Of a stretch of DNA of 64,000 nt, positions 22,788 through 63,486 are shown one piece after another (positions within the stretch are counted from its first letter, which is position 1; every line of letters begins with the position of its first letter). This stretch comes from an uncultured Alphaproteobacteria bacterium (GTDB lineage: Bacteria; Pseudomonadota; Alphaproteobacteria; Rhizobiales; Xanthobacteraceae), in assembly GCA_963810085.1 (NCBI GenBank), contig CAWEMR010000005.1, positions 378,648 through 442,647 on the forward strand. Direction: 5' to 3'. The position numbers and the translations under genes are program-made. The notes beneath the pieces were generated by a model. The model did not search any database. It was not told where the DNA came from and saw only the letters and a list, made by a program, of their open reading frames with translations.

Positions 22788-22797
22788 CGTTGCTTCC

Positions 22798-33015: not shown

Positions 33016-33127
33016 TTTCGTGCCTCCTATGCGATAGTGGCCCTCCTTATAGATGGTTGTCACCGTTTGACAATCGCGCCGCGGGCCGTAGCATCGCGCG
33101 TCCTCAAACCTATAAAGCAGCGTAGTC

Positions 33128-39408: not shown

Positions 39409-39482
39409 GGGCCTAAGCTTCGGGTACCGCGGCGGCGTAATATCGTCTAAAGTGCTGGAATCGAGGTATAGCAAAAACGCCG

Positions 39483-41573: not shown

Positions 41574-41578
41574 TCCGC

Positions 41579-41730: not shown

Positions 41731-41752
41731 AACATTGAGACCGCGAAGCTCT

Positions 41753-42190: not shown

Positions 42191-42257
42191 CTCGCTCCTA
42201 TTTCATGGCGCACCCTATCTAGGCCGGCTGGACGCGGGTTCAATGGCGCCGGACAAA

Positions 42258-43729: not shown

Positions 43730-43828
43730 GATCCCAGCCTCTCGCACAGAACGACGTTATTTGCAGGAAAACCGATGCCTGTGCGAAGATTATACCGTCC
43801 ACCCATGCTGGGGAAAAAGGGGGCGTAT

Positions 43829-44818: not shown

Positions 44819-44834
44819 AGCTGGATTTCTGTTT

Positions 44835-44882
44835 GAGCATGATCTTATCCGAAAACCGGTTCCCACTTTTCGGGATCATGCC
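44835..44882. repeat. nested palindromic intergenic repeat, copy 2
   Basis: GAGCATGATCTTATCCGAAAACCGGTTCCCACTTTTCGGGATCATGCC(C). It has the same orientation as copy 1 and about 5 mismatches over 49 nt. It fills the spacer between convergent hpnA and hpnJ and abuts the hpnJ stop codon. Confidence 0.8.
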
Positions 44883-46304: not shown

Positions 46305-47487
46305 TACGTTTCAACCTCGCCGTTTCAACCTCGCCGTAATATGCAAGCGTGTTGTCGGCTTCAACACCGTAGCGATGGCCGCGCCATTCGACGCCCCGGC
46401 CAAAGAAACTCGTCACAAAGACGGCAAATGATACTATATCCCGCAGCGGCCCCGACCGGTAGAAGCCCTCGCGCAGACCGAAGGCGCGATCGAGTTCCGT
46501 CTGAAGCACCGCGCGGCAGGCGAAGGCCACAGGCACAAACGCAGCGAGCGGGCTCATACCCCCGAGCAGCACCGCCAGCAATGCCAGCGGCAGAGCGTGC
46601 GTGATTACGGTTCCGGCAAAGCCCAGCGGGTTCACCGAGCGGATGGTGCGCGCCCAACGCAATTCGTGGCGAAACAGGCCTTGAGCCGAGGGCTGCGTGC
46701 ATTCGTGGCCGACGATATACGGCGGAATGGCGACATCAAATCCGGCGCGCCGGACGGCGGCGCCGAGCGCATAATCATCCGCCAGCTGATCGCTCACCGC
46801 TTCCAGCCCGCCGATTGCGGCAAGCGTTTCCTTGCGGATCGCGATGGTCGAGCCGAAGCAGGGTACAGCAAGTCCAAACATAAGGCCGACGAGCACGCTG
46901 GGCAGGAAATGGTAGTCGATGGCGGCGGCAGAGAGCCTGGACCAGATGCCTTCCGCCGCAACCCCCCGATAGAGGCAGGTAACGAGGCCGACGCCGGGCC
47001 GTTGCAGGCTTGCCGCAATGTTATTCAGATAGTCGGGATCAACGACGATATCGCTGTCCGATATCACCAGGACGTCATGCCGGGCTTCGGCCGCCATGTT
47101 GATCAAATTCGAAATCTTGCGGTTGCTGCCGTGACGGCGCGGATTGATCACCAAGCTGAGATCGCGGTCGGGGAAATCCGCGATAATCCGACGCACGACC
47201 TCGATCGCGGGATCGGCGCGGTCGCTCACACCGAAGATGATTTGCACCGGACTCGGATAATCCTGAACGCAGAAGCCGGTCAAATTGGCGTAAAGATTGG
47301 ATTCGGTTCCGTGCAACGGCTTGAGAATCGTGACGGCCGGAGTGCTTGCCGCCTCCGTGCCGCCAGCCGATTCAACAAACCAGCGTGCGGCATAGGCAGC
47401 CAGCAGCGCATAGAGGCAGCCGAGCGCTACCGCCGCATAACAAGCCAGTGACGCCACCTTGGCGCACTCAGCGAATAACTCGTCCAC
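46297..47487 (-). CDS. hpnI: hopanoid-associated family-2 glycosyltransferase
   Basis: 396 aa, GTG start. N-terminal TM helix, GT2 core with VLVISDSDIVV (DxD) and C-terminal TM helices. It lies between hpnL and hpnJ. Confidence 0.75.
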   Translation of the reverse strand: MDELFAECAKVASLACYAAVALGCLYALLAAYAARWFVESAGGTEAASTPAVTILKPLHGTESNLYANLTGFCVQDYPSPVQIIFGVSDRADPAIEVVRRIIADFPDRDLSLVINPRRHGSNRKISNLINMAAEARHDVLVISDSDIVVDPDYLNNIAASLQRPGVGLVTCLYRGVAAEGIWSRLSAAAIDYHFLPSVLVGLMFGLAVPCFGSTIAIRKETLAAIGGLEAVSDQLADDYALGAAVRRAGFDVAIPPYIVGHECTQPSAQGLFRHELRWARTIRSVNPLGFAGTVITHALPLALLAVLLGGMSPLAAFVPVAFACRAVLQTELDRAFGLREGFYRSGPLRDIVSFAVFVTSFFGRGVEWRGHRYGVEADNTLAYYGEVETARLKRNA

Positions 47488-48629: not shown

Positions 48630-48792
48630 CTGGAAGCCGTCATTTCCACGCCATATAGGAAATTTCGTGGAAGCAAATCCAGCCAGAGGTGTGACGACAC
48701 CAATTCATCTGTGAGGTGTGGCTTTTCTGCACTAGTGGACCGCGGATGCCCCTTCTATCTTTAGTTTTCAACATCTAACCATGGGGGCAAAA

Positions 48793-48903
48793 ATGAAAAA
48801 GCTCGCGTTCGGTACGGCAGTTGTTCTCGCACTTCTCAGCATGGCTGGCTGCGCACAAGTCGGCAAAGGCAAGGCGCCGCCGCCGGTCGTCACCAAGGGC
48901 TAA
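48793..48903 (+). CDS. 36-aa lipoprotein (hypothetical)
   Basis: Hand translation gives MKKLAFGTAVVLALLSMAGCAQVGKGKAPPPVVTKG, with a lipobox LSMAG|C. It is below the ORF-track size cut-off and lies between hpnL and hpnG. Confidence 0.5.
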   Translation: MKKLAFGTAVVLALLSMAGCAQVGKGKAPPPVVTKG

Positions 48904-49036
48904 CCGCGAAGACGGTCGGTATGAAGACGGGCATGCTCGGCCGCTCCCGCGGGTGTTCTTTGAGACTAAAGTTTCGCAGTGTGATCGATCACGATGTGAC
49001 TGATCGCGGTGTGATAGAAGTACAAGTGGGGGCCAC

Positions 49037-49714
49037 GTGATCATCGTCGTCGGACTGGCATTTGAAGCACGCATCGCCGCAGGACCAGGGGTGCGTGTCA
49101 TCTGCAGCGGCGATGGTCGCAACTTGGCAGCTAAACTTACAGCAGCGATCGCGGATGCCCGCGAACACGTTCAGGGCTGTCCGGGCATCATCAGTTTCGG
49201 CGTAGCCGGGGGGCTGGCGCCGCAACTGCGGCCCGGCACCTGCGTGGTCGGGTCCGCGGTTATTTCCGGTGAGAACCGGATGCCGATCAGCCGGGAATGG
49301 TCGCACAAGCTTTTGCGGACCATTCCGGACGCGATCCCGGGCGTGCTGCTCGGCGTTCCGGCGCCGATCGCCAATCCGGACGAAAAGCGCGAACTCTATG
49401 TGAAGACCGGCGCCATCGCGGTCGATATGGAATCCCATATCGTCGCCGCGGTTGGCTTAGCCCACGAACTGCCGGTGGCGGCGATCCGGGTCATTACCGA
49501 TCCCGCCAGACGCGCCTTGCCGGCCTCTGCGGTCGCGGCCATGCGCCCGAACGGCACCACGAATATCGGCGCCATGCTCCGTTCGGTGCTGCGGCGGCCG
49601 AAGGAACTGCCGGCCCTTTTCCAAACGGCGCTCGACGCACGCGCCGCGCGGGCAACCCTGGTGCGTGGAAGGCACTTACTCGGTCCTGCATTTACCTTGC
49701 CATCGACGACTTGA
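49037..49714 (+). CDS. hpnG: hopanoid-associated phosphorylase/nucleosidase (PNP/UDP family)
   Basis: 225 aa, GTG start. IIVVGLAFEARI..., ISFGVAGGL and AVDMESH are motifs of the PNP_UDP_1 fold. The hpn neighbourhood supports the call. Confidence 0.75.
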   Translation: MIIVVGLAFEARIAAGPGVRVICSGDGRNLAAKLTAAIADAREHVQGCPGIISFGVAGGLAPQLRPGTCVVGSAVISGENRMPISREWSHKLLRTIPDAIPGVLLGVPAPIANPDEKRELYVKTGAIAVDMESHIVAAVGLAHELPVAAIRVITDPARRALPASAVAAMRPNGTTNIGAMLRSVLRRPKELPALFQTALDARAARATLVRGRHLLGPAFTLPSTT

Positions 49715-49726
49715 GAGGCATCGGCC

Positions 49727-49921
49727 ATGTTCAAGTCCGCTGCGGAAGAGATCGGCGAGTGGGCTGACCGGTGCCGGCGGTGGGCTCGCAGCGCGCAATC
49801 CAAAGAACAGCGGCTGATGTTGCAGAGCTGGGAACGCTTGTTCAATCAAGCCGAGATCGAATCCGAAGAGAGTTTCGATTTCCGTTACAGCCCAAGCCCA
49901 CACGCGCCGACCAAATTCTAA
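49727..49921 (+). CDS. small helical hypothetical protein (64 aa)
   Basis: MFKSAAEEIGEWADRCRRWARSAQSKEQRLMLQSWERLF... resembles a class of small helical proteins that I recall as common in Rhizobiales. It starts 13 nt after hpnG. Confidence 0.45.
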   Translation: MFKSAAEEIGEWADRCRRWARSAQSKEQRLMLQSWERLFNQAEIESEESFDFRYSPSPHAPTKF

Positions 49922-50093
49922 TCCACGAAGAATAATCGAATCATCCCTGCAAGGGGTCGGACGCGTGATCGCCGCCGACCTCCGGGATCAATGTGCGGTT
50001 GGATGCGACGTGCCATTCGCCGTTTTTGCGGCAGGCAAGAGCTGCTTCGGAGACGTTCCGCCCACGGCGCCGCGGGTGTAAAAAGAAACCCGC

Positions 50094-51161
50094 ATGACCC
50101 GCACGAGGTTCGCTATGATCGAACGTAGGGCTTCGTACGACGCCGCACCGCAGGCGCTGGGATATGTGGGAATTCGCGCCAAGGATCTGGGCGATTGGGC
50201 AAGCTATGGCTCAGGGCTCCTCGGCCTCCAGCGCATCGACAAATCGCGTTCGACGCTCGCCTTCCGGATGGACGATCGCAAGCAACGCCTCCTGGTCGAG
50301 GCCGACGGCGGTGCCGGCATCGGCCTTTTCGGCTGGGAGGTGGCGGACGCGCCGGCGCTCGAGGCCATTGCCACACGTCTCGAACAAAGCGAAATCAAGG
50401 TTGCACGCGGCACACGAGCGCTTGCCGACGAACGCCACGTCAAGGATCTGATCGTGCTCAGCGACCCGGCCGGCAACCGGCTCGAACTCTTTCATGGCGC
50501 CGAGACCACGGCGGAACCGTTCAAGCCAGGCCGCTCCATCTCGGGCTTTCGCACCGGTCCGCTCGGCCTGGGCCACGTCGTGCTCAACGCCGACACTCCG
50601 CAGACGATCGAAACCTTGATGGCGTTTTATCGCGACACGCTCGGTTTCCGGCTGACGGATTACTATTCGCATCCTTTCGTCGCCCGCTTTCTTCATCTCA
50701 ATCCGCGCCACCACAGCCTCGCCTTCATCCAGACCGGCAAGAACGCGGTCCATCACATCATGATGGAGCTTTTCAGCTTCGACGATGTCGGTCAGGGCTA
50801 CGATCTCGCGCTCGGCGAAAAGGACCGCGTCGCGGTGACGCTCGGCCGCCACACCAGCGATTTCATCACCTCGTTCTACAGCTGGACGCCTTCCGGGTTC
50901 ATGGTCGAATACGGTTGGGGCGCACGTTCGATCGACGTCGATAGCTGGCAAGCCTTTGAACGCAAGGAAGGCCCAAGCATGTGGGGCCACGACCGCTCGT
51001 GGCTGTCGCCGGAGGACAACGCCAAGGCCGGCGCCTTGCGGCTGAAGAATGCCGCCGACGGGTTTCGCCGCCCGGTCCAGGTGATCGACGGCAATTACGA
51101 AGTGATGTCGGGCGTCTGCCCGTGGTGGGATAGTGTGAAACAGCGCACCGCCGCACGCTGA
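50094..51161 (+). CDS. type I extradiol ring-cleavage dioxygenase (BphC/HsaC-like) with a C-terminal extension
   Basis: LGYVGIRAKDL..., GLGHVVL, RHHSLAF, HHIMMEL, LGRHTSDFITSFY, EYGWGA and SMWGH are two-domain VOC extradiol signatures. The start could be 50094 or M8 at 50115. Confidence 0.8.
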   Translation: MTRTRFAMIERRASYDAAPQALGYVGIRAKDLGDWASYGSGLLGLQRIDKSRSTLAFRMDDRKQRLLVEADGGAGIGLFGWEVADAPALEAIATRLEQSEIKVARGTRALADERHVKDLIVLSDPAGNRLELFHGAETTAEPFKPGRSISGFRTGPLGLGHVVLNADTPQTIETLMAFYRDTLGFRLTDYYSHPFVARFLHLNPRHHSLAFIQTGKNAVHHIMMELFSFDDVGQGYDLALGEKDRVAVTLGRHTSDFITSFYSWTPSGFMVEYGWGARSIDVDSWQAFERKEGPSMWGHDRSWLSPEDNAKAGALRLKNAADGFRRPVQVIDGNYEVMSGVCPWWDSVKQRTAAR

Positions 51162-51174
51162 CCCGCGCCGCCGA

Positions 51175-52458
51175 TCACGACAGCATTTGCAACTTGCCGC
51201 CGACCGGAATTTCCGGCGCGGGCTTATTCGCTGTGATGACGAGATCGAAGGCACCAGCGTTGCGCTGCCACTGGCCGGCGACGAGCGGCGTCTTGCTCAC
51301 GTTCTTGACCGGCTGGCCGGTCCAGCGCACCGGGCCGACGATCGAATTGTAATTCGTGGCGACAATGGCCTCGAGGATGGCTTTCGGATCGATGCTCTTG
51401 CTGCGCTTGAGCACATCGATTGCCACCTCGAACAAGGCGTGCTGGTAACCGATCGGCTGCGACCACGGGCGCTTGGTGGCGTCCACATAAGCATCGGTCA
51501 GCGTCCGCGCGCTTTCGCCGGTCAATCCCGATTTGAACGGATGGTTAGGCGTCCACCAGATTTCGCTGGTCAGGCCGCTGCCGCGCGGCCCGAGCGAATT
51601 CACCACCGACGGAAACAACAGCGCCTTGCCGATGGTCACGATCTTGGGATGATATCCCTGCTGCGCCGCCTGCGACCAGAAGGTCGCGAAGTCGGGCGGA
51701 ATCATGTTGCCGGTGACGATCTCGGCGCCGGCCGCCTTGAACTGCGAGATCTGCGAAGTGAAATCGTTGTTCATCACCTGATAGCGGCCGGGATCGATCA
51801 GCTTGTAGCCGGCCTGGGCCAACGCCGGCGGCAGGCCGAGCTTCGGATCGCCCCAGGCATTGCCGTCGGCATCGTTGGGAAACAAGCCGCCGACCACTTT
51901 GTTGACCGACGCGCCGTCCCACAGCGCGAGGAATGCGGCGATGACGTCTTCCAGGCCCCAGAAGAAATGATAGGTCCAGGTGAACCCATTCTTCGGATCG
52001 CCGTTGCGGCCGAAGAAATAAGGCTGCCACGGACAATTGGTGGTGACGCAGGGCACCTCGTTGACTTCGGCCTGATCGGCCACCGGATTGGTGGTGTCGG
52101 GCGTGCCCTGCGCCAGAAGCAGGTCGACCTTGTCGTGCAGGATCAGTTCGGACGCCACTTCGGCGGCGCGGGTGCCGCTCGATTGGCTGTCCTTGCTGAC
52201 AATTTCGACCGAGTAGGTCTTGCCTCCGATCGGCAGGCCTTTGCTCAAGATGCCTCTCACCCGATCGAGAATGAAACCGTCAGCTTCGCCGAATCCCGCC
52301 AGTGGGCCGGTATGCGGGCTGACGAGACCGACCTTGACGCCCTTCGATTGCGCATGGGCGGGAATGATCCGCAGCACCGCGGGCGCCATGATCGCGCCAA
52401 GACCGCCGGCGACGACACCGCGACGATTGACGGCTGACCACTTCCTGTTGTTGGTCAT
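51175..52458 (-). CDS. periplasmic substrate-binding protein (LivK/Peripla_BP_6 type), Tat-like signal
   Basis: 427 aa with NRRGVVAGGLGAIMAPAVL...AHAQ, then VKVGLVSPHTGPLAGFG.... There are no adjacent permease or ATPase genes. Confidence 0.8.
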   Translation of the reverse strand: MTNNRKWSAVNRRGVVAGGLGAIMAPAVLRIIPAHAQSKGVKVGLVSPHTGPLAGFGEADGFILDRVRGILSKGLPIGGKTYSVEIVSKDSQSSGTRAAEVASELILHDKVDLLLAQGTPDTTNPVADQAEVNEVPCVTTNCPWQPYFFGRNGDPKNGFTWTYHFFWGLEDVIAAFLALWDGASVNKVVGGLFPNDADGNAWGDPKLGLPPALAQAGYKLIDPGRYQVMNNDFTSQISQFKAAGAEIVTGNMIPPDFATFWSQAAQQGYHPKIVTIGKALLFPSVVNSLGPRGSGLTSEIWWTPNHPFKSGLTGESARTLTDAYVDATKRPWSQPIGYQHALFEVAIDVLKRSKSIDPKAILEAIVATNYNSIVGPVRWTGQPVKNVSKTPLVAGQWQRNAGAFDLVITANKPAPEIPVGGKLQMLS

Positions 52459-52510
52459 TGAAATCTCCCTGGTCCCGGCTCGTTGCCTGCCTCTCTTGCC
52501 GGAGAGGCAA

Positions 52511-53425
52511 TTATTTGTCGCGCGACGCTTTCAGATGCGCCACGACTTTGGCGCGCAAGGCGGCCTGCTCTTCGGCACTCCACTTGCGAAAGCCCTCGCC
52601 CGATTTGAAACCGAGCTTGCCGTCGGCGACAAGCTTCTTCAGGTAAGGCGACGGCCCCGGCCGGCTGTCGATCGCCGGCAGCACGTTGTCGTGAATCGCA
52701 AGCGCCAGATCGGTGCCGACGAGATCGGCGTTTTCGAGCGGCCCGAGCACCGCGATGCGCCGACCAAATGAAGCCTTGATCACGGCGTCCACGGTCTCGG
52801 CGTCGCAGATGCCGTTTTCGACCAGCGAGATCGCCTCGCGCCACAGCGCGTGTTGCAGCCTGTTGCCGATGAAGCCCGGCACGTCCTTTTTGACATGGGC
52901 GGGCTTCTTGCCGGCGCGGCGATGCAGTTCCATGGTCCAGCTAACGGTCTGCGGCGAGGTCCATTGCGTTTCGATCACTTCGACCAGCGGCACCAGAAAC
53001 GGCGGATTCCACCAATGGGTGCCAAGCGCGCGCTCCAGTTGGTTCAGGCCCTGCATGATCGAGGTGATCGGAATGACCGAGGTATTGCTGGCAAGGATCG
53101 TGTCGGCGCGCACGTGGCGCTCGATCTCCGCGAACAGCGTTTGCTTGAGCGGCAGATCTTCCAGCACCGCTTCGACGACGTAATCGGCGTCGCGGACGGC
53201 TAAGGCAAGGTCGGCCTGCGGCGTGACGCGGTCGACGGCGGAAGGATCGTCACCGAGGTCTTTCAGGTTCGCGGAGATGCGCGACTTCACGGTCTCGAGA
53301 CTTTTGACAAACGAGTCGGTGATCGTGACATCGTGCCCGGCAAGCGCGAACACTTGCGCAATGCCGTGGCCCATCAGGCCCGCGCCGACGACCGCAATAC
53401 GCGCCTTCGCCACGTCGACTGTCAT
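52511..53425 (-). CDS. 3-hydroxyacyl-CoA dehydrogenase-family protein
   Basis: 304 aa with IAVVGAGLMGHGIA, SNTS, GTHWWNPP and GFIGNRL motifs. Confidence 0.85.
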   Translation of the reverse strand: MTVDVAKARIAVVGAGLMGHGIAQVFALAGHDVTITDSFVKSLETVKSRISANLKDLGDDPSAVDRVTPQADLALAVRDADYVVEAVLEDLPLKQTLFAEIERHVRADTILASNTSVIPITSIMQGLNQLERALGTHWWNPPFLVPLVEVIETQWTSPQTVSWTMELHRRAGKKPAHVKKDVPGFIGNRLQHALWREAISLVENGICDAETVDAVIKASFGRRIAVLGPLENADLVGTDLALAIHDNVLPAIDSRPGPSPYLKKLVADGKLGFKSGEGFRKWSAEEQAALRAKVVAHLKASRDK

Positions 53426-53427
53426 TG

Positions 53428-54231
53428 TCAGCCCGCCGTATAGCCGCCGTCGGCATAAAGGATGTGGCCGGTGTAGAAGTCGGACGCCTTGGACGCGAGG
53501 AACAACAGCGGCCCGGCGAGATCTTCGGGCTCGCCGAGACGGCCCTTCGGCACGCGCGTCAGAAAGCCCGCGCGCACGGTCTTGCCACGCTCGTCATCGG
53601 CGAACATCCACTCGGTCAGCGGCGAGCGGAAAACCGTGGGACCGAGCGCATTGACCGTGATCCCGGTGGCGCCGAGCTCGCAGCCGAGCGCCTTGGTGAT
53701 GCCGTCGACGGCGGATTTCGAGGCGCAATAAGCGGTATAGCCGGCCGGGTGGCCGAGCAGGCCGCGCGCGGACGACATCAGAATAATCTTGCCGCCGCGG
53801 CCCTGCTTGATCATCTGCCGCGCCGCGGCGCGCGCCATCAGCCAGGATTGCGTGACATTGGCGTCCATCACGTCGAGAAAATCCTCGGCCTTTTGATCGA
53901 CGATCTTCGCCACTTTGTTCTGGCCCGAGGCGACGACCAGGATGTCGAGGCCGCCGAATGCCTCGACCGCCGCCGCGACAATGGCGTCGCAATGCGCTTC
54001 GGAGCTTGGGCGTTTGGCCACGACCTCGGCCTTGCCGCCGAGCTTGACGCAGTCCGCGGCGAGCTTCTTGAGCCCTTCCGCATTGTTTGCGGCGGCGACG
54101 ACACTAGCGCCGGCTGCGGCCAAAGTTTTTGCGGCAATGGCGCCGAATGCACCGGTCGCGCCGGTGACGATGGCAGCCTTGCCGCGCACATCGAACAGCG
54201 AGAGTGGGTTTTTCAGAAAATCTTCGGACAT
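53428..54231 (-). CDS. SDR-family oxidoreductase
   Basis: The start was taken at M37 of ORF 53428..54339 (MSEDFLKNPLSLFDVRGKAAIVTGATGAFG...). The catalytic Ser and YCASK are present. The stop lies 2 nt before the next ATG. Confidence 0.85.
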   Translation of the reverse strand: MSEDFLKNPLSLFDVRGKAAIVTGATGAFGAIAAKTLAAAGASVVAAANNAEGLKKLAADCVKLGGKAEVVAKRPSSEAHCDAIVAAAVEAFGGLDILVVASGQNKVAKIVDQKAEDFLDVMDANVTQSWLMARAAARQMIKQGRGGKIILMSSARGLLGHPAGYTAYCASKSAVDGITKALGCELGATGITVNALGPTVFRSPLTEWMFADDERGKTVRAGFLTRVPKGRLGEPEDLAGPLLFLASKASDFYTGHILYADGGYTAG

Positions 54232-54302
54232 GATCGTTACTCGTGTTTGAACCGTCACCGAGGCGCGAGCGGAGCGGGCCTCAGGATGACGGAGCACAAA
54301 CG

Positions 54303-54641
54303 CTATTTCACCGGCGCCACGGCCACCGCGATGGTGCAAACATCATGGCCGCGATTGATGATCTCGCGGCTTTCGTTCGGACCGATGTAGCAGCTATCGC
54401 CCGCCTTGATGACAGACTCCTTGCCGCCGGCAATGACCGTGAGTTCGCCGGCCAGCACATAGTAAATCTTCTCCGGCGGCGAAGCGTCGGGGCCGGCGCC
54501 GCCGCCCGGCAGAAAGTGCGAGACGCCAAAGACCAGCGTTTGCGAGCCACCCATCTCGGCGCCGAACACGCGAAACGACTTGTATTCGCGGTGGTTCGGC
54601 GCTTCGTAGGGTTTCGCTTCGGAGAACTTGCGGACGATCAT
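54303..54641 (-). CDS. cupin-domain protein (112 aa)
   Basis: The start was taken at M83 of ORF 54303..54887 (MIVRKFSEAKPYEAPNHREY...YYVLAGELTV...GDSCYIGPNE). It shares a TAATG overlap with the upstream cyclase gene. Confidence 0.7.
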   Translation of the reverse strand: MIVRKFSEAKPYEAPNHREYKSFRVFGAEMGGSQTLVFGVSHFLPGGGAGPDASPPEKIYYVLAGELTVIAGGKESVIKAGDSCYIGPNESREIINRGHDVCTIAVAVAPVK

Positions 54642-55483
54642 TAGAACTTCTCCCCCTTCTCGATGCGATAGGCGCCCTTCGGATCGATGATCGCGACTAA
54701 TCGGATGATGCAGCCGTCGCCGCGATCCCAGTTCCACGGGAAGAACGCGAAGGTGCAGCGCTTGCCGGTGACTTTGTCTATATCGCCGCCGACATTCTCG
54801 ATGCCGAGAATGCCGTTCTTGAACAGGATGCGGTGCACCGGCTCCCATTCGGGAAAGTCGTCCTTCCAGTCGCGGCCGCCGGACCATTCCTTATATTCAT
54901 CGGCGAGATGCGGATGCAGCGGACCGTTGCGCTGCGGGCCGATCGCGGTCGCCAGCGGATGATCATTGGCCTGGGTGTCGTGGCCGACGACCTTGACCTT
55001 CTTTTCGACGAACCATTTGCCGGCCGACGACACAAAGCCCGGCGAGCGGCAGAAATAGTCCTCGCTGTCTTCGTAAAGCTTGTGCCAGCCGGTATTGACG
55101 ATGACGACGTCACGGGGCCGCACAATCCTGCCGGCCGCCTTCTCCAGATCGTCATAGGTGATCTGTTCCCATTTCTTCTTCGGGATCGAGATCACGATGC
55201 CGGAGCCGAAGAAATGCGGCAGCGGCACTTCATCGATGAACGGCGTGCCCTGCACCACATGTGCCGGCGCATCGATATGGGTGGTGTTGTGCATCGACGT
55301 CGTGATGCGCTGCGACAGCACGCCCGACTTCGCCATGTAATGAATGCGCTCGATCTTGACGTCTTCGAAATAGGGCCAGTTCGGCGACTGATAGCCGAAG
55401 CGATGCGACAGATTGTAGAATTGCAGCCCCATCGCGTTGTTGAGGTTTTCTTCGAAACTCACTCCGCGAATTTTCTTCGCCAC
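54641..55483 (-). CDS. cyclase-family protein (metal-dependent hydrolase fold)
   Basis: 280 aa with SMHNTTHIDAPAHV and VVGHDTQAND motifs. It is the first gene of the minus-strand operon downstream of iclR. Confidence 0.8.
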   Translation of the reverse strand: MAKKIRGVSFEENLNNAMGLQFYNLSHRFGYQSPNWPYFEDVKIERIHYMAKSGVLSQRITTSMHNTTHIDAPAHVVQGTPFIDEVPLPHFFGSGIVISIPKKKWEQITYDDLEKAAGRIVRPRDVVIVNTGWHKLYEDSEDYFCRSPGFVSSAGKWFVEKKVKVVGHDTQANDHPLATAIGPQRNGPLHPHLADEYKEWSGGRDWKDDFPEWEPVHRILFKNGILGIENVGGDIDKVTGKRCTFAFFPWNWDRGDGCIIRLVAIIDPKGAYRIEKGEKF

Positions 55484-55597
55484 AGTGTCTTCCTCCCGGT
55501 TTCTTCCCGCATCCGCTTCAGCGGCGGTTACGGCACGTGTACTGGTATCCGGTACGGTGTGTACCGCAACGCGGTCGACCGGACAAGCCGCCCGTCG

Positions 55598-56389
55598 TTA
55601 CGCGGCGGCCGCCATCAGATGCCGCTCCAGCGCCTCCTTGGTCGCGCGCAAGCGGTCCACAATCTGTTTCTGGCGGTCGTAGAAACGCTGCGCCGGCACC
55701 GGCACCGAGATCGCCAAAACATTGCCGACCGGGTCGCGCGTCACAGTGCCGGCGGCGCAGATGCCGCTCGTGTGCTCTTCACGGTCGATGGCGACGCCAG
55801 TCTTGCGCACGGATTTCAGATCCTTGAGCAGATCGTCGAGCCGCGTCAGCGTGCACGGCGTGCGGCGCTCATAGATGGTTCCAATCAGGCGCTCGATCGC
55901 TGTGGCGTCGAGCCCGGCGAGATAGGCCTTGCCGTTCGCCGTGCAATAAAGCGGAAAGCTCTCGCCGACCGCCGAGACGGTGCGCAGCCGCTGCGAACCG
56001 ATGACCTGGTCGACGAAAACCAAGTGGTCGTTCTTGACCACGGCAAGATCGGCGGTTTCTTTAAGCTCGCTGGAGAGCTGCGCCAAAAACGGCCGCGCCG
56101 CAGCGACGAAATCGGTGCGCGCGGAAGCTGCAAGCCGCAGGATCGTCGGACCGAGCCGCACGCGGCCGTTCGGCGAGGCCGCGATCAGAAACTTCTCGGC
56201 CGCGAGCGCGCCGACAATGCGCTGCACCGTCGAGCGCGCCAGATTGACCCGTTGCGCGATCTGGCCGAGGCTCAAGCCTTCCATTTCATCTTCGAGGATG
56301 CGCAGGATTGCCGCGGCGCGCGCAATCACCTGCACCTGACTTTTGTCGCTGCTCTTGTCGCCTAACGCGCGCATGCCGGTTGCCCGCAT
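55598..56389 (-). CDS. IclR-family transcriptional regulator
   Basis: HTH (VIARAAAILRILEDEMEGLSLGQIAQRVNLARSTVQRIVGALA) plus an IclR effector domain. Several in-frame ATGs exist (56404, 56389, 56374). 56389 has an AGGACGAG-like SD. Confidence 0.8.
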   Translation of the reverse strand: MRATGMRALGDKSSDKSQVQVIARAAAILRILEDEMEGLSLGQIAQRVNLARSTVQRIVGALAAEKFLIAASPNGRVRLGPTILRLAASARTDFVAAARPFLAQLSSELKETADLAVVKNDHLVFVDQVIGSQRLRTVSAVGESFPLYCTANGKAYLAGLDATAIERLIGTIYERRTPCTLTRLDDLLKDLKSVRKTGVAIDREEHTSGICAAGTVTRDPVGNVLAISVPVPAQRFYDRQKQIVDRLRATKEALERHLMAAAA

Positions 56390-56531
56390 GTCTCGTCCTG
56401 GCATGTGCTGCCCTGCCCTTAGTCCACGCAATCTTGCTGCCCGGTTCGTGCTTTGATACAGGATCACCGCCATACGGTACAGAGGATAGCGCCGGCACCA
56501 AGAACCGGTGCCGCAAAAGTCGGGGGGTCAG

Positions 56532-57494
56532 ATGGTCCACAAGATCGCGCTCGAAGAGCACTTCCTCCCGCCCGGCTTCGAAGATTATTGGCGGCCGACC
56601 GTCCGCCATATCGATCCCAAGCACGCCGCTAAATTGTTCGCGGCACTGACCGATTTCGGCGAGGCGCGGCTATCCTCGATGGATGAAGCCAGCATCGCCC
56701 GCTCCGTCCTCGGCTTGGCCGGACCCGGCGTCCAGGCCGAGCGCGATACAGCGACCGCGATCCGCAATGCCAAATCCGCCAATGATTTTCTTGCGCGGGA
56801 ATTAGCCAAGCGGCCGGAGCGCTATTCCGGCTTCGCGCATCTTGCCATGCAGGACCCGCGTGCGGCGGCGGATGAGTTGGAACGTTGCGTACGCGAGCTA
56901 AAATTCTGCGGCGCGATGATCAACGGCCACACCCATGGCCAATATCTCGATCATCCGTCGCTCTCGCCGTTCTGGGAACGCGCCGAGGCGCTCGGCGCGC
57001 CGATCTATATCCACCCGACCGATCCGATCACGCCCTCCCCCGCGCTTGACGGCTATGACGGGTTGCGCCGCGCCACTTGGGAATGGGGCTTTGAAACCGG
57101 CTCGCACGCTTTGCGCCTGGTCTTTGGCGGGCTGTTCGACCGCTTCCCGCGCGCCAAAGTCATGCTCGGCCATCTCGGCGAGACGCTGCCTTACTTGTTG
57201 TGGCGCTTCGACAGCCGCGCCAAGCTCTACAGCGTCAAGCTCGCCAAACCGCCGTCCGTTTACATCAAAGAGAACATCCTGGTGACGACGTCGGGCATGT
57301 GCTCCGCCGAACCGCTCGGCTGCGCAATCGCAGCGCTCGGGCATGAACACGTGATGTTTGCCGCCGATCATCCCTTCGAAACGGCGCAGGAAGCCGGCGA
57401 GTTTCTCGATCATACGCCGCTCACGGAGAACGTGCGCGAGGACATTGCTTTCAACAATGCCGCAAAGCATCTTGGCCTTGCGAAAGGCCGATAA
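56532..57494 (+). CDS. amidohydrolase-2 family non-oxidative decarboxylase (gamma-resorcylate / dihydroxybenzoate decarboxylase-like)
   Basis: The start was taken at M9 of ORF 56508..57494. KIALEEHF, FAHLAMQDP, YIHP, GHLGE..PY..WR and DHPFE are hallmarks of the resorcylate/LigW-type decarboxylases as I remember them. Confidence 0.75.
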   Translation: MVHKIALEEHFLPPGFEDYWRPTVRHIDPKHAAKLFAALTDFGEARLSSMDEASIARSVLGLAGPGVQAERDTATAIRNAKSANDFLARELAKRPERYSGFAHLAMQDPRAAADELERCVRELKFCGAMINGHTHGQYLDHPSLSPFWERAEALGAPIYIHPTDPITPSPALDGYDGLRRATWEWGFETGSHALRLVFGGLFDRFPRAKVMLGHLGETLPYLLWRFDSRAKLYSVKLAKPPSVYIKENILVTTSGMCSAEPLGCAIAALGHEHVMFAADHPFETAQEAGEFLDHTPLTENVREDIAFNNAAKHLGLAKGR

Positions 57495-57513
57495 GCGGGC
57501 GCCGTCCTATCTC

Positions 57514-58455
57514 ATGACAAAAGTCCTCATCGTCGACGTCCACGCCGAGATGTATCGCGACCGGCTGGCGGCGGAATTCCCGGATCTGGAGTTCGCGCTG
57601 TTTCACAAGGCGGCCGACGTGGCGGGCGATTTGTCCGACATCGACGTCATGCTCATGTTCGGCATTGAGGTACGCGACGAAATGCTCAGCGGCGCGCCGC
57701 AACTGAGATGGATCCAGTCGCTGGCAACCGGTGTCGATCATTTCCTGCGCTGTCCCTCGCTCAAGCCCGACGTGTTGATCACCAGCGGCCGCGGCATCCA
57801 CGGCCCGCCGATGCGCGAGCAAGTCGTTTATCTGATGATGGCGGTGAGCCGCGACGCCAAGCGCCAGGTCGAAGACCATCAGCACCGCATCTGGCAGCGC
57901 CGGCTCTGGAGCACGTTGCACGGCAAGACAGCGGTGGTCGTCGGCACCGGCATCGTCGGCGAGGCGATCGGCGAATTGTTGCGCGCCTTCGGCATGCACA
58001 CGATCGGTGTCACGCGCACGCCGCGCAAGATCGCCGGCTTTGACGAGACGATGTCCGCCGATCGCCTGCCGGAAGCCGCGGCGAAAGCCGATTACCTGAT
58101 CAATGTGCTGCCGGCGAGCGCCGACAATATCGGGCTGTTCGGCGCCAAGGTGTTCGGCGTCATGAAGCCTTCGGCCTATTACATCAGCGCCGGCCGCGGC
58201 CAGACGGTAGACGAAGACGCCCTGGCCGCAGCCTTGCGCGAGCGGCGGATCGCCGGCGCCGGCTTCGATGTTTTCCAGGCCGAACCGCTGCCGCCGGAGA
58301 GCCCGTTCTGGCAATTGCCGAACGTGTTCATCACCCCGCATGTCGGCGGCTATGTCGTCGAATACGAGGATTTCGTGATGCCGCTTGTGATCGACAACAT
58401 GCGGCTGTTCGTCGCCGGACGACTGAGCGACATGCAAAATATCGTGCCGCGCTAG
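57514..58455 (+). CDS. D-isomer-specific 2-hydroxyacid dehydrogenase-family protein
   Basis: The start was taken at M53 of ORF 57358..58455 (MTKVLIVDV...). GKTAVVVGTGIVG NAD fold, and ARG..VDE and TPHVGG motifs. Confidence 0.8.
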   Translation: MTKVLIVDVHAEMYRDRLAAEFPDLEFALFHKAADVAGDLSDIDVMLMFGIEVRDEMLSGAPQLRWIQSLATGVDHFLRCPSLKPDVLITSGRGIHGPPMREQVVYLMMAVSRDAKRQVEDHQHRIWQRRLWSTLHGKTAVVVGTGIVGEAIGELLRAFGMHTIGVTRTPRKIAGFDETMSADRLPEAAAKADYLINVLPASADNIGLFGAKVFGVMKPSAYYISAGRGQTVDEDALAAALRERRIAGAGFDVFQAEPLPPESPFWQLPNVFITPHVGGYVVEYEDFVMPLVIDNMRLFVAGRLSDMQNIVPR

Positions 58456-58593
58456 GCGCTGCGAGCGGTACTCCTCGGGCGCTTGAGTGTTTCCAAGTCC
58501 AGGAATTTGTTGCAAAATCTACCATTCCCGGCGCGCCCGCAAAAAAGGGGATATACCCCGCGACGCATCACCCGAGGAATGTGGAGGACGCCC

Positions 58594-61500
58594 ATGCTCG
58601 CCAAGCTCAAACTGCCGATCATCCTGTTCGGCGCGGCGCAACTCCTCAAACATGCGGCGCGGCGGCATCCGGACTTCAGAGCGCGCGTCAAGGAGCATAA
58701 TTTCACGGCCCAGATCATGACGCGCGACGAAGAGATCGGGCGCTGGATCGAATTCAAGGACGGTACGATCACTTCGCGCGCCGGCTTGCACGACAAGCCT
58801 GACATCAAATTGATGTTCAAGAACGCGGGCGTCGGCGCGAGGTTACTCACGCCGCCGATCAACTGGTTGCAACAGATCAACGCCCAGAAGGATTTCGTGC
58901 TCGCGGTCGACGGCCCCGAGCATCTGACCAATTGGTTCGCGCAAACGCTGATGCTGAGCCAGTCGGCCGGGCTCACATACGGCAAGAGGCTGCGCCGCGG
59001 CGTCAGACGCTATTGCAACATGACCAATGGCGGGCCGGTTTTCGTCGACGTCAAAGCCGACAAGATCCTGCGCATGACGCCGATCGATCTCGCCGACGAC
59101 GACGAGGCATCGTGGACCATCGAGGCCAAGGGCTTAAAACTCACGCCGCCGCGTAAGACGACGCTGGCGCCGCACGGGCAGAACGCAAAATCCGTCGTCT
59201 ATTCGCCGGATCGACTGCTCTATCCGATGAAGCGCGTCGACTTCGACCCGAACGGCGCGCGCAATCCGCAAAACCGCGGCAAGTCGGGCTATGTGCGCAT
59301 CTCGTGGGACGAGGCGATCAAGATCGTCACCGACGAGATCAAGCGGCAGAAGCGCGATCATGGACCCGGCGCGATCACGTTCTCGCACGGCTCGCATCAC
59401 ACCTGGGGCAATATCGGCTACTACCTCTCCGCGCTGTTCCGCTTCGCCAATGCGGTCGGCATGACGCGCATCCATCACAACCCGGATTCGTGGGAAGGCT
59501 GGTACTGGGGCGCGGTGCATCACTGGGGCCATACGCTCCGCGTCGGGCAATCGGAAACTTACGGCACCGTCGAAGACTGCCTGCAGAACTGCGACATGAT
59601 CGTGTCGTGGGCGGCCGATCCCGAATCGACGTCGGGCTCCTACGGCGCGCAGGAAGGTACGACGCGGCGGCAATGGCTGAAAGATCCGAAGCTCGGCATC
59701 AAGGTCGTCCACGTCGACCCATATTACAACGCCTCGGCGCAATTCCTGCCCGGCAAATGGTTCGCGCCGAAGCCGACCACCTCGGTCGCGATGGCGATGG
59801 CGATCGCCTACGTCTGGATCAAGGAAGGCCTCTACGACAAATCCTACGTCGAGACGCACACCGTCGGGTTCGACAAATGGAAGGCGTATTTGCTCGGCGA
59901 CGACGACGGCATTGCGAAAACGCCGGAATGGCAGGAGCAGGAAACCGGCGTTCCGGCAAAGGACGTCCGCGCGCTGGCGCGGGAATGGGGCAAGAAGCGC
60001 GTCTATCTCGCGCCAGGCGGCTGGGGCAACGGCCATGGCGGCGCCTGCCGCAACCAGACCGGCATCCAGTGGGCGCGGGTGATGGTGTGTCTCGTCGCCA
60101 TGCAGGGCCTCGGCAAGCCCGGCATCAATATGGGCAATCTACAATGGGGCACGCCGATCGACTTCAATTTCTATTTCCCCGGTTATGCCGACGGCGGCAT
60201 GTCGGGCGATCTCGAAAACACCTCGATGCCGGTCGAGCTCTATCAGCGCATGCCGCAATTGCCGACCATGAATTCCAACGCCCAGCGCATCCCGCGCATC
60301 TTCGTGCCGGAGGCGATCCTCGACGGCAAAGCCGAGGGCTATCCGTGGGTCGGCAAGTCGATCGAGCATCAGTTTCCGAAATTCACTTATCCGGCGGCCG
60401 GCCACTCGCCGGTGCACATGCTCTACAAATACGGCGGCTCGATCCTTTCGACCATGAACAATACCAACCGCTGGGTGCGGATGTATCAGTCGGAGAACCT
60501 CGAATTTGTGGTCAACCAGTCGATCTGGTTCGAAGGCGAAGCGAAATTCGCCGACGTCATCCTGCCGGCCTGCACCAATTTCGAGCGCACCGACATCAGC
60601 GAGTGGGCCGGGCTCGGCGGCTATGGCCATCACGGCCAGCAGCAGCTTAATCACCGCGTCATCGTGTTCCAGGCGCCGGCGATTAAGCCGCTCGGCGAAT
60701 CGAGATCCGACTTCTGGATTTTCAACGAGCTGTGCAAGCCGCTCGGGCTCGCCAATTATTTCTCCGAAGGCTGCAACGAGATCGACTGGGTCAAGCGCGC
60801 CTTTCTCGCCTCCGACCTGCCGCAGCACATTTCGTGGAAGAAATTCTTGAAGCGCGGTTATTTCGTCGTGCCGGCCGAGAAGGAAAAACTGCGCGCGCCT
60901 GTGTCGTTCCGCTGGTTCTTCGAAAACCGCAAGAAAGATGTGCCGGAAGCGCAGCCGCTGCCGTCCGACTACACCGAGGAATATCTGCGCGGGTTGCAGA
61001 CCCAGTCCGGCAAGCTCGAATTCGAGTGCAATTCGCTCAAACGCTTCAACGATCCGGAGCGGCCGCCGATCGTCAAATACGAGCCGTCATGGGAGGGCGC
61101 GCATTCCGGCGAATTGTTCGAGCGCTATCCGCTGCAGCTTCTCACCCCGCACTCAAAATATTCGTTCCACACCCAGGGCGACGGCAAGGATTCGTTTTTG
61201 CTCAATATCGAGGACCATCGCGTCAGGGTCGACGGCTACTATTATTGGATCATGCGCATGAACGCCGATGACGCCAAAGACCGCCGCATCGGCAAGCACA
61301 ATCTGGTCAAAGTGTTTAACGATCGCGGCGCGGTGATTTGCGCGGCGCTGCCGACGCAGCGGCTGCCACGCGGCGTCGCGCACGGTTATGAGTCCTCGGC
61401 GATCTATGATCCGATGGGCGAGCCCGGCAAATCGGTCGACCGCGGCGGCTGCCTCAATCTGCTCACGCCCGAGCGCACGCAAACCAAATCCACGCATTCG

Positions 61501-61641
61501 CTCGCCGGATCGAATTCGCTGGTCCAGATCGAATTGTGGGACGGCCGCACCGAACACATGTCTGCGGCATTCGCAACTGCGGAAAAAGACAAGGACATCG
61601 AGCGCACACCGAATGAGGCGCAACTGGTGCCGGCAAAATGA
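58594..61641 (+). CDS. molybdopterin (bis-MGD) enzyme, pyrogallol-phloroglucinol transhydroxylase / resorcinol hydroxylase large-subunit-like, with an extra N-terminal domain
   Basis: ATG 58594 has GGAGGA 5 nt upstream. From about residue 142 onward ([25 protein letters not shown]...[14 protein letters not shown]...[12 protein letters not shown]...[33 protein letters not shown]...GGCLNLLTP) it is collinear with the Pelobacter AthL-type subunit as I remember it. The first roughly 140 aa are additional. Confidence 0.8.
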
Positions 61642-62474
61642 AAAAATGGAACATGATTATCGACGTGGCTGAGTGCACGAACTGCAATCTGTGCACGCTT
61701 GCCGCCATGGATGAATATGTCGGCAACGACTGGCCCGGCTACTCTGCGCCGATGCCAAAGCACGGCCATAAGTGGATCAATATTCTGCAGAAGGAGCGCG
61801 GGCAGTTGCCGATGATCGACCTCGCCTATGTTCCGACCATGTGCAATCACTGCGACGATGCGCCTTGCATGAAGGCCGCGCCCAAAGGCGCCATCAAAAA
61901 GCGCAAAGACGGCATCGTGCTGATCGATCCGGTGAAGGCGAAGGGGCAGAAGCAGCTGGTCGATGCCTGCCCTTACGGGCATATCTGGTGGAACGAGGAA
62001 TTGCAGTTGCCGCAGGCCTGGACCTTCGACGCGCATCTGATCGACCAAGGCTGGCAGCAGACCCGCGGCCAGCAATCCTGCCCGACCGGGGCGATGCGCG
62101 CGATCAAGGTCGAGGACGAGGAGATGTCGCGCATGGCGAGCGAGCAAAGTCTCGAAGTCATGAAGCCCGAGCTCAACGCCAAGCCGCGGGTCTATTACCG
62201 GAACCTGTGGCGCTATTCGAAATGCTTTATCGGCGGATCGGTGTCGGAAGAGAAAGACGGCGTCGTCGATTGCGTCGAAGGCGCGACCGTGCAATTGGTC
62301 AAGGAGGGCGAGTCGGTCGCGGTGACCACGACCGACAATTACGGCGACTTCAAATTCGATAGGCTCGACGAGAATTCCGGCGCCTACACCGTGCAGATCT
62401 ATGCCGGTGGCCGTTCTAAACTGGTGGAGACCAGCCTCGGCTCGAGCATCAATCTCGGCGATATCAGGTTGTGA
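61638..62474 (+). CDS. 4Fe-4S cluster beta subunit of the transhydroxylase-like enzyme
   Basis: 278 aa with an ATGA overlap with the alpha subunit. Cys clusters [16 protein letters not shown] and CPYG...CPTGA. The C-terminal Ig-like barrel ([29 protein letters not shown]) is as in the BthL-type subunit. Confidence 0.8.
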
Positions 62475-62508
62475 TCATCATGGTCACTTCGTGCCAAGGA
62501 AATCACCG

Positions 62509-63486
62509 ATGACAAGAATGTTCAGCGCGTTGATCCTCCTGGCGTTGCTGAGCGGCCCGAGCGCCGCGCAGACGGCGGCTTATCCCGCGCGCCAAGTCAC
62601 CTTGATCATCACCTCCGTCCCGGGCGGTGTGACCGATGTCACCGGGCGGGCGCTGGCCCAGGAGCTTGGCAAGGCCTGGGGCCAGCCGGTCATCGTCGAG
62701 AACAGAGGCGGCGCCGCGCATATCATCGGTGCCCAAGCCGTCGCCAAGTCCGCGCCGGATGGCTACACGCTCTTGGTCGGCGAGTCCGGCACCTTCACCG
62801 TCAATCCGTCGCTCTATCCCGACGGCAAGCTGCCCTACGATCCGGATAAGGATTTCGTGCCAATCACCGGGCTCGTGCGCATCAATCAGGCGCTCTTGAC
62901 CGACCATTCGCTGCCGGTGAACAACGCCGCCGAACTGATCGCGCTCGCTAAGGCGAAGCCGGGTCAGTTGACGTACGGCACCGCCGGCATCGGCTCGGCG
63001 CTGCATATGAACATGGAACTGTTCGACCGCATGGCCGGCGTGAAAATCCTCCCCGTGCATTACCGCGGTTCGACGCCGGCGCTGAACGATCTGATCGGCG
63101 GCTCGATCAATGTGATGACGATCAGCGTGGCGTCGGCACTGCCGGGGTACCAGGCCGGACAGCTCAAGATCCTCGGCATCGGCAGTCCAAAGCGATTGCC
63201 GTCGCTGCCCGACATTCCGACCGTCGACGAGAGCGGGCTGCCCGGCTTCCAGGCCACGGCCTGGTTCGGCTTGTTCGGACCCGCCGGCATGCCGCAAGAC
63301 GTGGTGACGAAGATCGACACCGATGTCATCAAGATCTTCAACGATCCGGCGTTCCGCGCGCGCTTTCTCGAACCGCAATTGTTCGAATCGATGGCGGGGC
63401 CGCCGAATGAGTTCGCCGCCTACATCAAAGCGGAACGCACCAAGTGGTCCGGCGTCATTCGCGACGCCGACTTGAAGCTGGAATAA
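62509..63486 (+). CDS. Bug-family (TctC) substrate-binding protein
   Basis: The start was taken at M37 of ORF 62401..63486 (MTRMFSALILLALLSGPSAAQ...). YPARQVTLIITSVPGGVTD...ENRGGAA...PDGYTLLV. Confidence 0.85.
   Translation: MTRMFSALILLALLSGPSAAQTAAYPARQVTLIITSVPGGVTDVTGRALAQELGKAWGQPVIVENRGGAAHIIGAQAVAKSAPDGYTLLVGESGTFTVNPSLYPDGKLPYDPDKDFVPITGLVRINQALLTDHSLPVNNAAELIALAKAKPGQLTYGTAGIGSALHMNMELFDRMAGVKILPVHYRGSTPALNDLIGGSINVMTISVASALPGYQAGQLKILGIGSPKRLPSLPDIPTVDESGLPGFQATAWFGLFGPAGMPQDVVTKIDTDVIKIFNDPAFRARFLEPQLFESMAGPPNEFAAYIKAERTKWSGVIRDADLKLE

Follow-up and report, generated by a model that had tools for sequence, protein, structure and literature searches.

Predicted phloroglucinol degradation genes joined to a transhydroxylase-like molybdenum enzyme operon in an uncultured Xanthobacteraceae lineage

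In the breakdown of tannins and flavonoids, pyrogallol and phloroglucinol serve as hubs, and the molybdenum (Mo) transhydroxylase together with the reductive phloroglucinol (PG) route is textbook 'anaerobic' chemistry. Relatives of both sets of genes lie head to head in a 64,000-nucleotide stretch of DNA from an uncultured Xanthobacteraceae bacterium (GenBank assembly GCA_963810085.1, contig CAWEMR010000005.1, positions 378,648 to 442,647; hereafter the window, in whose own numbering positions are given unless another locus is named). Between positions 50094 and 63486, a minus-strand block resembling known PG degradation clusters diverges from a plus-strand operon encoding a two-subunit Mo enzyme and a predicted decarboxylase, and it is the relationship between these two units that concerns us here.

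[quoted passage not shown] A PG cluster was also predicted bioinformatically in facultative aerobes, among them Bradyrhizobium sp. ORS 375, Mesorhizobium loti and Novosphingobium pentaromativorans US6-1 (PMC10470551), and Rv1714-Rv1718 of Mycobacterium are its predicted counterpart, Rv1714-Rv1716 being about 40% identical to the Clostridium cluster (PMC5894108). The closest described relative of the Mo enzyme is AthL/BthL of Pelobacter acidigallici (PDB 4v4c), the pyrogallol-phloroglucinol transhydroxylase, for which 1,2,3,5-tetrahydroxybenzene is the cosubstrate. It is a two-subunit enzyme of the dimethyl sulfoxide (DMSO) reductase family that carries Mo-bis-pyranopterin guanosine dinucleotide (Mo-bisPGD) and is without an FS0 cluster; its host is a strict fermenter. 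Resorcinol hydroxylase RhL/RhS of Azoarcus (Aromatoleum) anaerobius has, like the enzyme of the window, a proteobacterial host, and RhL belongs to the RhL/PgtL family of Ser-coordinated Mo enzymes (PMC10100899). Finally, a 2026 preprint describes pgthAB and PGR homologs, without DPGC, in aerobic SAR116.

The pathway logic that leads from pyrogallol through PG to reductive ring opening is classical, and the locus presented here is a variant of it, not a new kind of pathway. The original prediction, made from the letters of this stretch, had held the combination to be undescribed in aerobic Bradyrhizobiaceae-like bacteria, a claim that went too far given the clusters already predicted in Bradyrhizobium, M. 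loti and other facultative aerobes, and one that the SAR116 preprint also anticipates. In the literature searched we found no description of the two modules physically joined in the Xanthobacteraceae lineage, nor of the SCP2-like domain, the loss of an iron-sulfur (Fe-S) cluster or the recurrent cupin reported below.

The minus-strand block and known phloroglucinol clusters

Genes were called from a listing of open reading frames (ORFs) with a codon-position GC filter, together with Pfam and sequence searches against Protein Data Bank (PDB) structures. All twelve genes of the cluster were confirmed by the Pfam and PDB searches and stand essentially where the original prediction had put them; NCBIfam is without specific models for the cluster enzymes, and every match to it fell below cutoff. 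The core of the minus-strand block comprises, in order of transcription, a cyclase-family metallohydrolase (54641-55483; Pfam Cyclase, 1.5e-33), a small cupin of 112 residues (54303-54641; Pfam Cupin_2), an SDR (53428-54231; best PDB match 5g4k/5g4l) and an HCDH-family enzyme (52511-53425; Pfam 3HCDH_N and 3HCDH), the first, third and fourth being candidates for DPGC, PGR and TfD, respectively, the last of these as an (S)-3-hydroxy-5-oxohexanoate dehydrogenase. The genes are tightly packed: the stop codon of the cyclase gene and the start codon of the cupin gene overlap by one nucleotide, and the HCDH start codon follows immediately upon the SDR stop codon (53425 and 53428).

Searching the window cyclase against plasmids led to annotated PG clusters in Aminobacter sp. 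MSH1 and N. pentaromativorans US6-1, both of which run in the order cyclase, cupin, SDR, HCDH, transporter and '3-keto-5-aminohexanoate cleavage protein', the first four in the order of the window. Identity to the window proteins, which spans 38-78% over the two clusters, is 78% for the cyclase, 52% for the cupin, 72% for the SDR and 59% for the HCDH enzyme in Aminobacter, and 65%, 38%, 65% and 58%, respectively, in Novosphingobium. The same gene set occurs in Mycobacterium riyadhense and Acetoanaerobium noterae, whose cyclases are 63% and 36-42% identical to that of the window. The block has in common with the C. scatologenes cluster and its predicted counterparts the same three enzyme families and a small cupin and, with the clusters of Aminobacter and M. 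riyadhense, an IclR regulator gene alongside. It differs from known PG clusters in having neither a TAL/BKACE gene nor the membrane components of a transporter, and in being physically joined to an operon for a decarboxylase and a transhydroxylase-like enzyme.

The best PDB match of the SDR, 5g4k/5g4l, which we take to be the Clostridium PGR (Conradt 2016), scores 192 bits as against 145 or fewer for any other SDR; identity to 5g4k is 42.9% over 254 residues, and the dinucleotide-binding turn reads AANN in the window protein and TGRN in 5g4k, PGR being known for a TR(S/N) NADPH-binding motif (PMC10470551). In the cyclase, the metal motif HxxTHxDAPxH and W36-P-Y38 are conserved, as they are in the four PG-cluster cyclases, W36-P-Y38 corresponding to the W-x-Y hallmark of DPGC, in which Trp and Tyr stand in place of Ile32 and Leu34 of isatin hydrolase (PMC10470551). 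The HCDH enzyme has as its top PDB match 4om8, an enzyme annotated 5-formyl-3-hydroxy-2-methylpyridine 4-carboxylate 5-dehydrogenase, the substrate in this name being a free acid and not a CoA ester; in TfD the CoA-binding residues Lys56 and Asn221 are lost (PMC10470551). On the grounds of identity, gene order and the W-x-Y signature, the SDR, cyclase and HCDH enzyme are assigned as a predicted PGR/DPGC/TfD module, as originally proposed, and the run cyclase-cupin-SDR-HCDH is, judging by its sequence, an ortholog of the PG degradation cluster, in the same order and minus TAL.

A tblastn search with two BKACE proteins found no BKACE/TAL gene in the 64-kb window, in line with the earlier remark that no beta-keto-acid cleavage gene lies in the cluster, and none in the loci of close relatives (10 kb on each side of the gene for the large subunit of the Mo enzyme, alpha); the sole match among 80 such loci was in a distant one (L071). 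Because of this absence, the PG pathway as encoded here would end at triacetate. ScoAB (22128-23481) and a thiolase (13431-14597), to which the original prediction had drawn attention, are indeed encoded at these positions and were rejected as cluster members, because of their distance of 27-37 kb and their setting among unrelated genes. The minus-strand block closes with the gene for a LivK-type periplasmic solute-binding protein (51175-52458; Pfam Peripla_BP_6, 3.5e-38) with homologs, 79-82% identical, in only three relatives; no transporter permease or ATPase genes were found nearby.

The small cupin is a homolog of M. tuberculosis Rv1717 (NCBIfam NF050094, 8e-19, below cutoff), a protein encoded beside Rv1714-Rv1716. 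In Aminobacter, Novosphingobium and M. riyadhense its counterparts are encoded beside the PG-cluster cyclase, and in Acetoanaerobium at the upstream end of the cluster, the genes in these relatives being located at 9840-10190 of L081, 9897-10247 of L082, 7804-8154 of L086 and 4836-5150 of L087. PG clusters of Proteobacteria, of Mycobacterium and of an anaerobic Firmicute have a small cupin of the Rv1717 family as a conserved component, and the published assignment of Rv1717 as a beta-galactosidase looks doubtful in this context. Acetoanaerobium and Clostridium are strict anaerobes, and the idea that the cupin might be a Dke1-like beta-diketone dioxygenase replacing TAL was rejected since the same cupin is found in the clusters of both, since no Dke1 was among the PDB matches and since inspection by eye did not reveal the canonical His metal motif. 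The cupin is absent from the main-text discussion of Zhou et al., and a C. scatologenes cupin of 113 residues is listed in their proteomics supplement (PMC10470551). The Rv1717-family cupin is a fifth component of PG clusters, that of M. tuberculosis included.

The molybdenum enzyme and its operon

The Mo enzyme is encoded on the plus strand by the Mo-bisPGD large subunit alpha, AthL-like and 1015 residues long (58594-61641), and by the BthL-like Fe-S small subunit beta of 278 residues (61638-62474; Pfam Fer4_11 and CarboxypepD_reg), the two genes overlapping, by their coordinates, in a 4-nt ATGA. Alpha contains the AthL-specific first domain and the domains that bind the bis-molybdopterin guanine dinucleotide cofactor (Pfam AhtL-like_1st, Molybdopterin and Molydop_binding; PF21423, PF00384 and PF01568). 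It matches AthL (4v4c_A) at 940 bits (E 1e-281), residues 175-1022 of the 1052-residue ORF aligning with residues 5-870 of 875, and beta matches BthL (4v4c_B) at 254 bits over its full length, C-terminal barrel included, scores that bear out the closeness to AthL/BthL initially proposed. The alpha core is 51.7% identical to AthL. The 78 long-form homologs of alpha are 50-56% identical to AthL and 55-89% identical among themselves, which makes AthL the outgroup by identity.

The window enzyme shares with AthL/BthL its two-subunit Mo-bisPGD architecture, its place in the DMSO reductase family, the want of an FS0 cluster, the AhtL-like first domain, the C-terminal beta-barrel domain of beta and the lack, as judged by eye, of an evident twin-arginine signal. 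Alpha also keeps Ser175, the Mo ligand, and His144, Asp174, Tyr404 and Tyr560, the four residues that we take to be catalytic, all conserved in 75-78 of the 78 homologs. Replaced throughout the clade are R153Y, H154L, H180Y, W354H, P562H, D563H and Y565Q, among which Arg153, Trp354 and the 562-565 loop presumably line the substrate pocket (Messerschmidt 2004).

More than 5000 database proteins match alpha at E <= 1e-50, and at least 597 matching loci are found in species-representative genomes. The best 80 of these include SAR116, Rhodospirillales, Gammaproteobacteria and Magnetospirillum, and further homologs are carried on replicons of cultured Ensifer, Burkholderia, Paraburkholderia, Cupriavidus and Salipiger; Ensifer, Burkholderia and Salipiger are aerobes. 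Among the matches listed, the closest public relatives are uncultured soil Xanthobacteraceae metagenome-assembled genomes (MAGs), with alpha identities of up to 93%. A look-up of the exact beta sequence among public assemblies gave no match. By sequence, alpha and beta represent a separate, large and mostly uncultured proteobacterial clade related to AthL/BthL, known chiefly from MAGs and from the cultured Ensifer, Burkholderia and Salipiger, in contrast to the strictly fermenting host of AthL.

Beta departs from BthL in keeping only eight of its twelve cluster cysteines (C23A, C126W, C129D and C145G). Of 65 beta homologs, 64-65 have another residue at positions 126 and 129, and a Cys is retained at position 23 in nine and at position 145 in eight of them. 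The four lost residues presumably belong to the second (middle) cluster of the chain, if the cysteine-group pattern of NarH/FdnH applies; beta is expected to hold two Fe-S clusters, not three, and by the same pattern the remaining two would be non-adjacent. This loss fits a redox-neutral reaction better than an electron-exporting hydroxylase.

Alpha differs further from AthL in a conserved N-terminal domain of about 125 residues (approximately residues 1-125; 58594-58970), which went unmentioned in the original prediction. The domain has no Pfam match. Its AlphaFold2 model reaches a pLDDT of 87-97 over residues 1-80, and the top Foldseek match is the SCP2 domain of UbiJ (probability 1.0, target-normalised TM 0.64-0.70), which the PDB names a ubiquinone synthesis protein, followed by the SCP2 domains of alkylsulfatases and by SCP2 proteins. 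On this structural prediction the domain is assigned an SCP2 alpha/beta fold. It has 33 invariant columns in 45 homologs and occurs in every alpha homolog examined down to an identity of 50%, but not in AthL. An exhaustive search of a 1.84-billion-protein library, for which just this domain was the query, yielded almost nothing but short, seemingly incomplete proteins, apart from one of 997 residues in which the match is N-terminal; no stand-alone or otherwise fused homologs of the domain are evident in that library.

The operon opens with an amidohydrolase-2 protein (56532-57494, plus strand; Pfam Amidohydro_2), a predicted non-oxidative ortho-hydroxybenzoate decarboxylase. The earlier description of it as resorcylate-type is sound inasmuch as its nearest solved structures are gamma-resorcylate decarboxylases (3s4t/4qro, 232 bits; 2dvt, 217 bits), with LigW scoring almost equally (206 bits). 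Like the enzymes of Polaromonas JS666 (4qro) and Rhizobium MTP-10005 (2dvt), it has the amidohydrolase-2 fold and, near its N-terminus, E8 and H10, which match the metal ligands Glu8 and His10 (PMC8187880). Gene context points to a trihydroxybenzoate rather than gamma-resorcylate as its substrate. Between this gene and that for alpha, in the window and in 13 relatives, lies a gene for a D-isomer-specific 2-hydroxyacid dehydrogenase family protein (57514-58455, plus strand; Pfam 2-Hacid_dh_C), which among PDB entries is nearest to a phenylpyruvate reductase and to unnamed members of the family (162 bits). The operon ends with a TctC-family (Bug) carboxylate-binding protein (62509-63486, plus strand; Pfam TctC, 1.9e-68), the gene for which lies downstream of beta in 10 close relatives.

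Linkage of the two operons and competing readings

Linkage was assessed by tblastn with the window proteins against the best 80 of the at least 597 alpha-homolog loci, each comprising 10 kb on either side of alpha, followed by ORF maps. Fifteen assessable loci, each from a different species-level genome, have an alpha core with 90% or more identity to that of the window, and in 14 of them the two operons are placed head to head. None of 62 more distant loci has this arrangement or a cyclase within 10 kb. Conservation of gene order in related genomes had been put forward with the original prediction as a check on it, and the retention of the arrangement by 14 of the 15 closest assessable species-representative genomes argues that the juxtaposition is not due to chance. 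In addition, four marine alphaproteobacterial loci carry, immediately upstream of alpha, a PGR-like SDR that is 38-39% identical to 5g4k (generic SDRs, 31% or less) and 49-50% identical to the SDR of the window, an observation in agreement with the SAR116 preprint.

We favour, with confidence evenly balanced between belief and doubt, the view that the two operons constitute a catabolic supercluster that would feed tri- or dihydroxylated benzenoids into the reductive, hydrolytic PG route by way of a redox-neutral transhydroxylation. Homology, gene order, the conservation of catalytic residues and that of linkage are what the sequences show, and the substrates and the direction of flow are what we infer. 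An aromatic carboxylate with an ortho-hydroxyl group, for which 2,3,4- or 2,4,6-trihydroxybenzoate or a resorcylate are candidates, would be taken up with the aid of the TctC protein and decarboxylated by the amidohydrolase-2 enzyme, whereupon the AthL/BthL-like Mo enzyme would shift a hydroxyl group in an O2-independent reaction with no net redox change, yielding PG. The SDR of the divergent operon, as PGR, would then reduce PG, the cyclase, as DPGC, would open the ring hydrolytically, and the HCDH-family enzyme, as TfD, would oxidise 3-hydroxy-5-oxohexanoate to triacetate, which would be cleaved by an enzyme encoded elsewhere.

A number of observations weigh against this proposal. The function of the proteins of this clade is deduced from homology and not from enzyme activity, the alpha core has just 52% identity to AthL, and near the substrate there are clade-wide replacements (R153Y, W354H and the loop after Y560). 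2,4,6-Trihydroxybenzoate would need no Mo enzyme, the lyase that finishes the pathway is absent from the window and from the close-relative loci, and an O2-dependent extradiol dioxygenase adjoins the cluster (50094-51161, plus strand). Within the narrow clade itself, one locus (L003), whose alpha core is 92% identical, is without the PG module, and alpha homologs with 76-89% core identity stand in quite different neighbourhoods. In this sister clade, a DoxX-family membrane protein is encoded after beta in 21 loci (L016-L047; e.g. 14721-15203 of L027), two small cupins lie beside alpha/beta in ten, mostly between the subunit genes, and LysR regulators and enoyl-CoA hydratases are also found. 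Still more distant SCP2-bearing alpha/beta homologs (50-56% identity) on replicons of Ensifer canadensis (L083), Burkholderia stagnalis (L084) and Salipiger abyssi (L085) have as neighbours VOC dioxygenases, hydrolases of the FAH family, acyl-CoA synthetases and FadL/OmpW-type porins, which suggests that they act on a different, possibly hydrophobic phenolic substrate. As the neighbourhoods differ in this way, the alpha/beta family clearly acts on other substrates as well and takes part in several pathways.

Some of the same observations would be expected if the two operons were independent units lying side by side in a catabolic island inherited in one lineage, the PG block acting on imported PG and the operon for the decarboxylase, 2-hydroxyacid dehydrogenase, alpha/beta and TctC on an unrelated phenolic acid, the product of which may go to the extradiol dioxygenase or elsewhere. 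The confinement of the linkage to relatives with at least 90% alpha core identity is compatible with this, as are the PG-less locus L003, a locus (L036) in which decarboxylase and alpha lie about 6 kb apart, the VOC dioxygenases and FAH hydrolases near distant homologs, the occurrence of an extradiol dioxygenase near alpha both here and in SAR116, and the fact that PG clusters elsewhere are complete without a Mo enzyme. We nevertheless consider two unrelated units rather unlikely, because the divergent order, with a short shared spacer and no intervening regulator, is kept in most of the 14 relatives, which are different species-level genomes, because the marine PGR-like SDRs beside alpha represent a second, independent association, and because the product of the closest characterised relative of the Mo enzyme is the very substrate of the neighbouring block.

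A further alternative is that the Mo enzyme is of the water-dependent resorcinol-hydroxylase type, turning resorcinol derived from gamma- or beta-resorcylate into hydroxyhydroquinone or, with a new regiochemistry, into PG, and passing the electrons to a quinone that is perhaps held by the SCP2-like domain. The original prediction had regarded a resorcinol to hydroxyhydroquinone route as equally open; we now consider it unlikely. It would accommodate the gamma-resorcylate decarboxylases that come closest to the decarboxylase among solved structures, the SCP2 domain of UbiJ as top structural match of the N-terminal domain, the DoxX protein encoded after beta in the 21 sister-clade loci and the clade-wide replacement of Arg153 and Trp354 of AthL, which is compatible with another phenol. 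The resorcinol hydroxylase of Azoarcus is membrane-associated, a property that, by analogy, an SCP2-like domain could explain. RhL/RhS, however, needs an electron acceptor, whereas beta of the window is without all four ligands of one of the three Fe-S clusters of BthL and, if it is the middle cluster that has been lost, as the NarH/FdnH pattern would have it, the electron wire through beta is broken. Moreover, the window has no gene for DoxX, a cytochrome or another acceptor, and the neighbours of the Mo enzyme are enzymes of the PG route, with no hydroxyhydroquinone dehydrogenase or intradiol dioxygenase among them. DoxX was itself rejected as an electron acceptor here, being found only in the sister clade and not in the window, and the sister clade that has it is without the same Fe-S cluster.

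Regulation, neighbouring genes and wider meaning

The two operons had been described as IclR-flanked; an IclR-family regulator gene is indeed present (55598-56389, minus strand; Pfam HTH_IclR and IclR_C), as a single copy placed between the operons and not on either side of them. It lies upstream of the cyclase gene, on the same strand, and is divergent from the decarboxylase gene, from which a region of 142 bp, read directly from the sequence, separates it (56390-56531). This placement is seen only in the window and in two relatives (L001 and L036), the operons of the other relatives having just a short shared spacer between them. A perfect 6-bp inverted repeat, CGGTACggtgtGTACCG, stands at 55551-55567 in the spacer between iclR and the cyclase gene, upstream of the latter, and a related half site, ACGGTACA (TGTACCG-like), at 56474-56481 in the spacer between iclR and the decarboxylase gene. 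The inverted repeat and the shared half site may be a putative IclR operator, and IclR probably controls both operons.

The extradiol dioxygenase, a type I two-domain, BphC-like protein (Pfam Glyoxalase and BphC_D1), has as its top PDB match 2,3-dihydroxybiphenyl 1,2-dioxygenase (203 bits). Its gene converges on the PG block, is kept at this position in eight close relatives and has homologs, 47-49% identical, that adjoin alpha in the SAR116 loci L063 and L066. In seven relatives (L002, L006, L012-L015 and L041) it is followed by genes for MmgE/PrpD-like and luciferase-like monooxygenase proteins in an operon of its own; in the window, the LivK-type gene, on the other strand, takes the place of these two genes. 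The dioxygenase probably belongs to a neighbouring unit. On that side, 48704-50082 is a stretch of about 1.4 kb that has a positive AT skew and in which no ORF passes the codon-position GC filter. The cluster as a whole is bounded upstream by a gene for a lysyl-phosphatidylglycerol-synthase-like membrane protein and, downstream of the TctC gene, by folC on the opposite strand.

Elsewhere in the window, a second and possibly related group (38236-46310) encodes a MetE-like protein (38236-39408), a second Mo enzyme, which has an Fe4S4 domain (39441-41573), another cyclase-family protein (42258-43220), an NAD-dependent epimerase-like protein and a B12-binding radical SAM enzyme (44883-46310); the cyclase-family protein of this group does not have the HxxTHxDAPxH and W-P-Y signature. 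An HpcH/HpaI-type aldolase gene adjoins that of a second amidohydrolase-2 protein at 32155-34147, and with the gene for a LysR regulator at 35262-36254 the two may form another aromatic-acid unit.

The window and the at least 597 related loci show that among Proteobacteria a sister clade of the transhydroxylase occurs commonly, most of its members coming from uncultured soil and marine genomes, and that in one uncultured Xanthobacteraceae lineage the transhydroxylase-like genes are hard-wired to those for PG degradation. Should the proposed function be true, the mobilisation of polyphenol carbon in oxic or fluctuating soils could proceed without oxygenases. That an Fe-S cluster has been lost in nature and an SCP2-like domain gained offers direct handles on two long-standing questions, the role of the transhydroxylase clusters and the supply of cosubstrate. 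A broader proposition, which we regard as quite unlikely on present evidence, is that the SCP2-fused, cluster-depleted AthL/BthL-like enzymes are a distinct and very widespread class of proteobacterial O2-independent phenol (trans)hydroxylases whose SCP2-like domain holds a lipophilic partner, which may be either a quinone that carries hydroxyl groups or electrons or a phenol substrate with an alkyl or acyl group. If this were so, the role of the Fe-S chain of transhydroxylases would become testable by natural variation, and aerobic soil and marine bacteria would routinely be using 'anaerobic' Mo chemistry and reductive ring opening on polyphenols.

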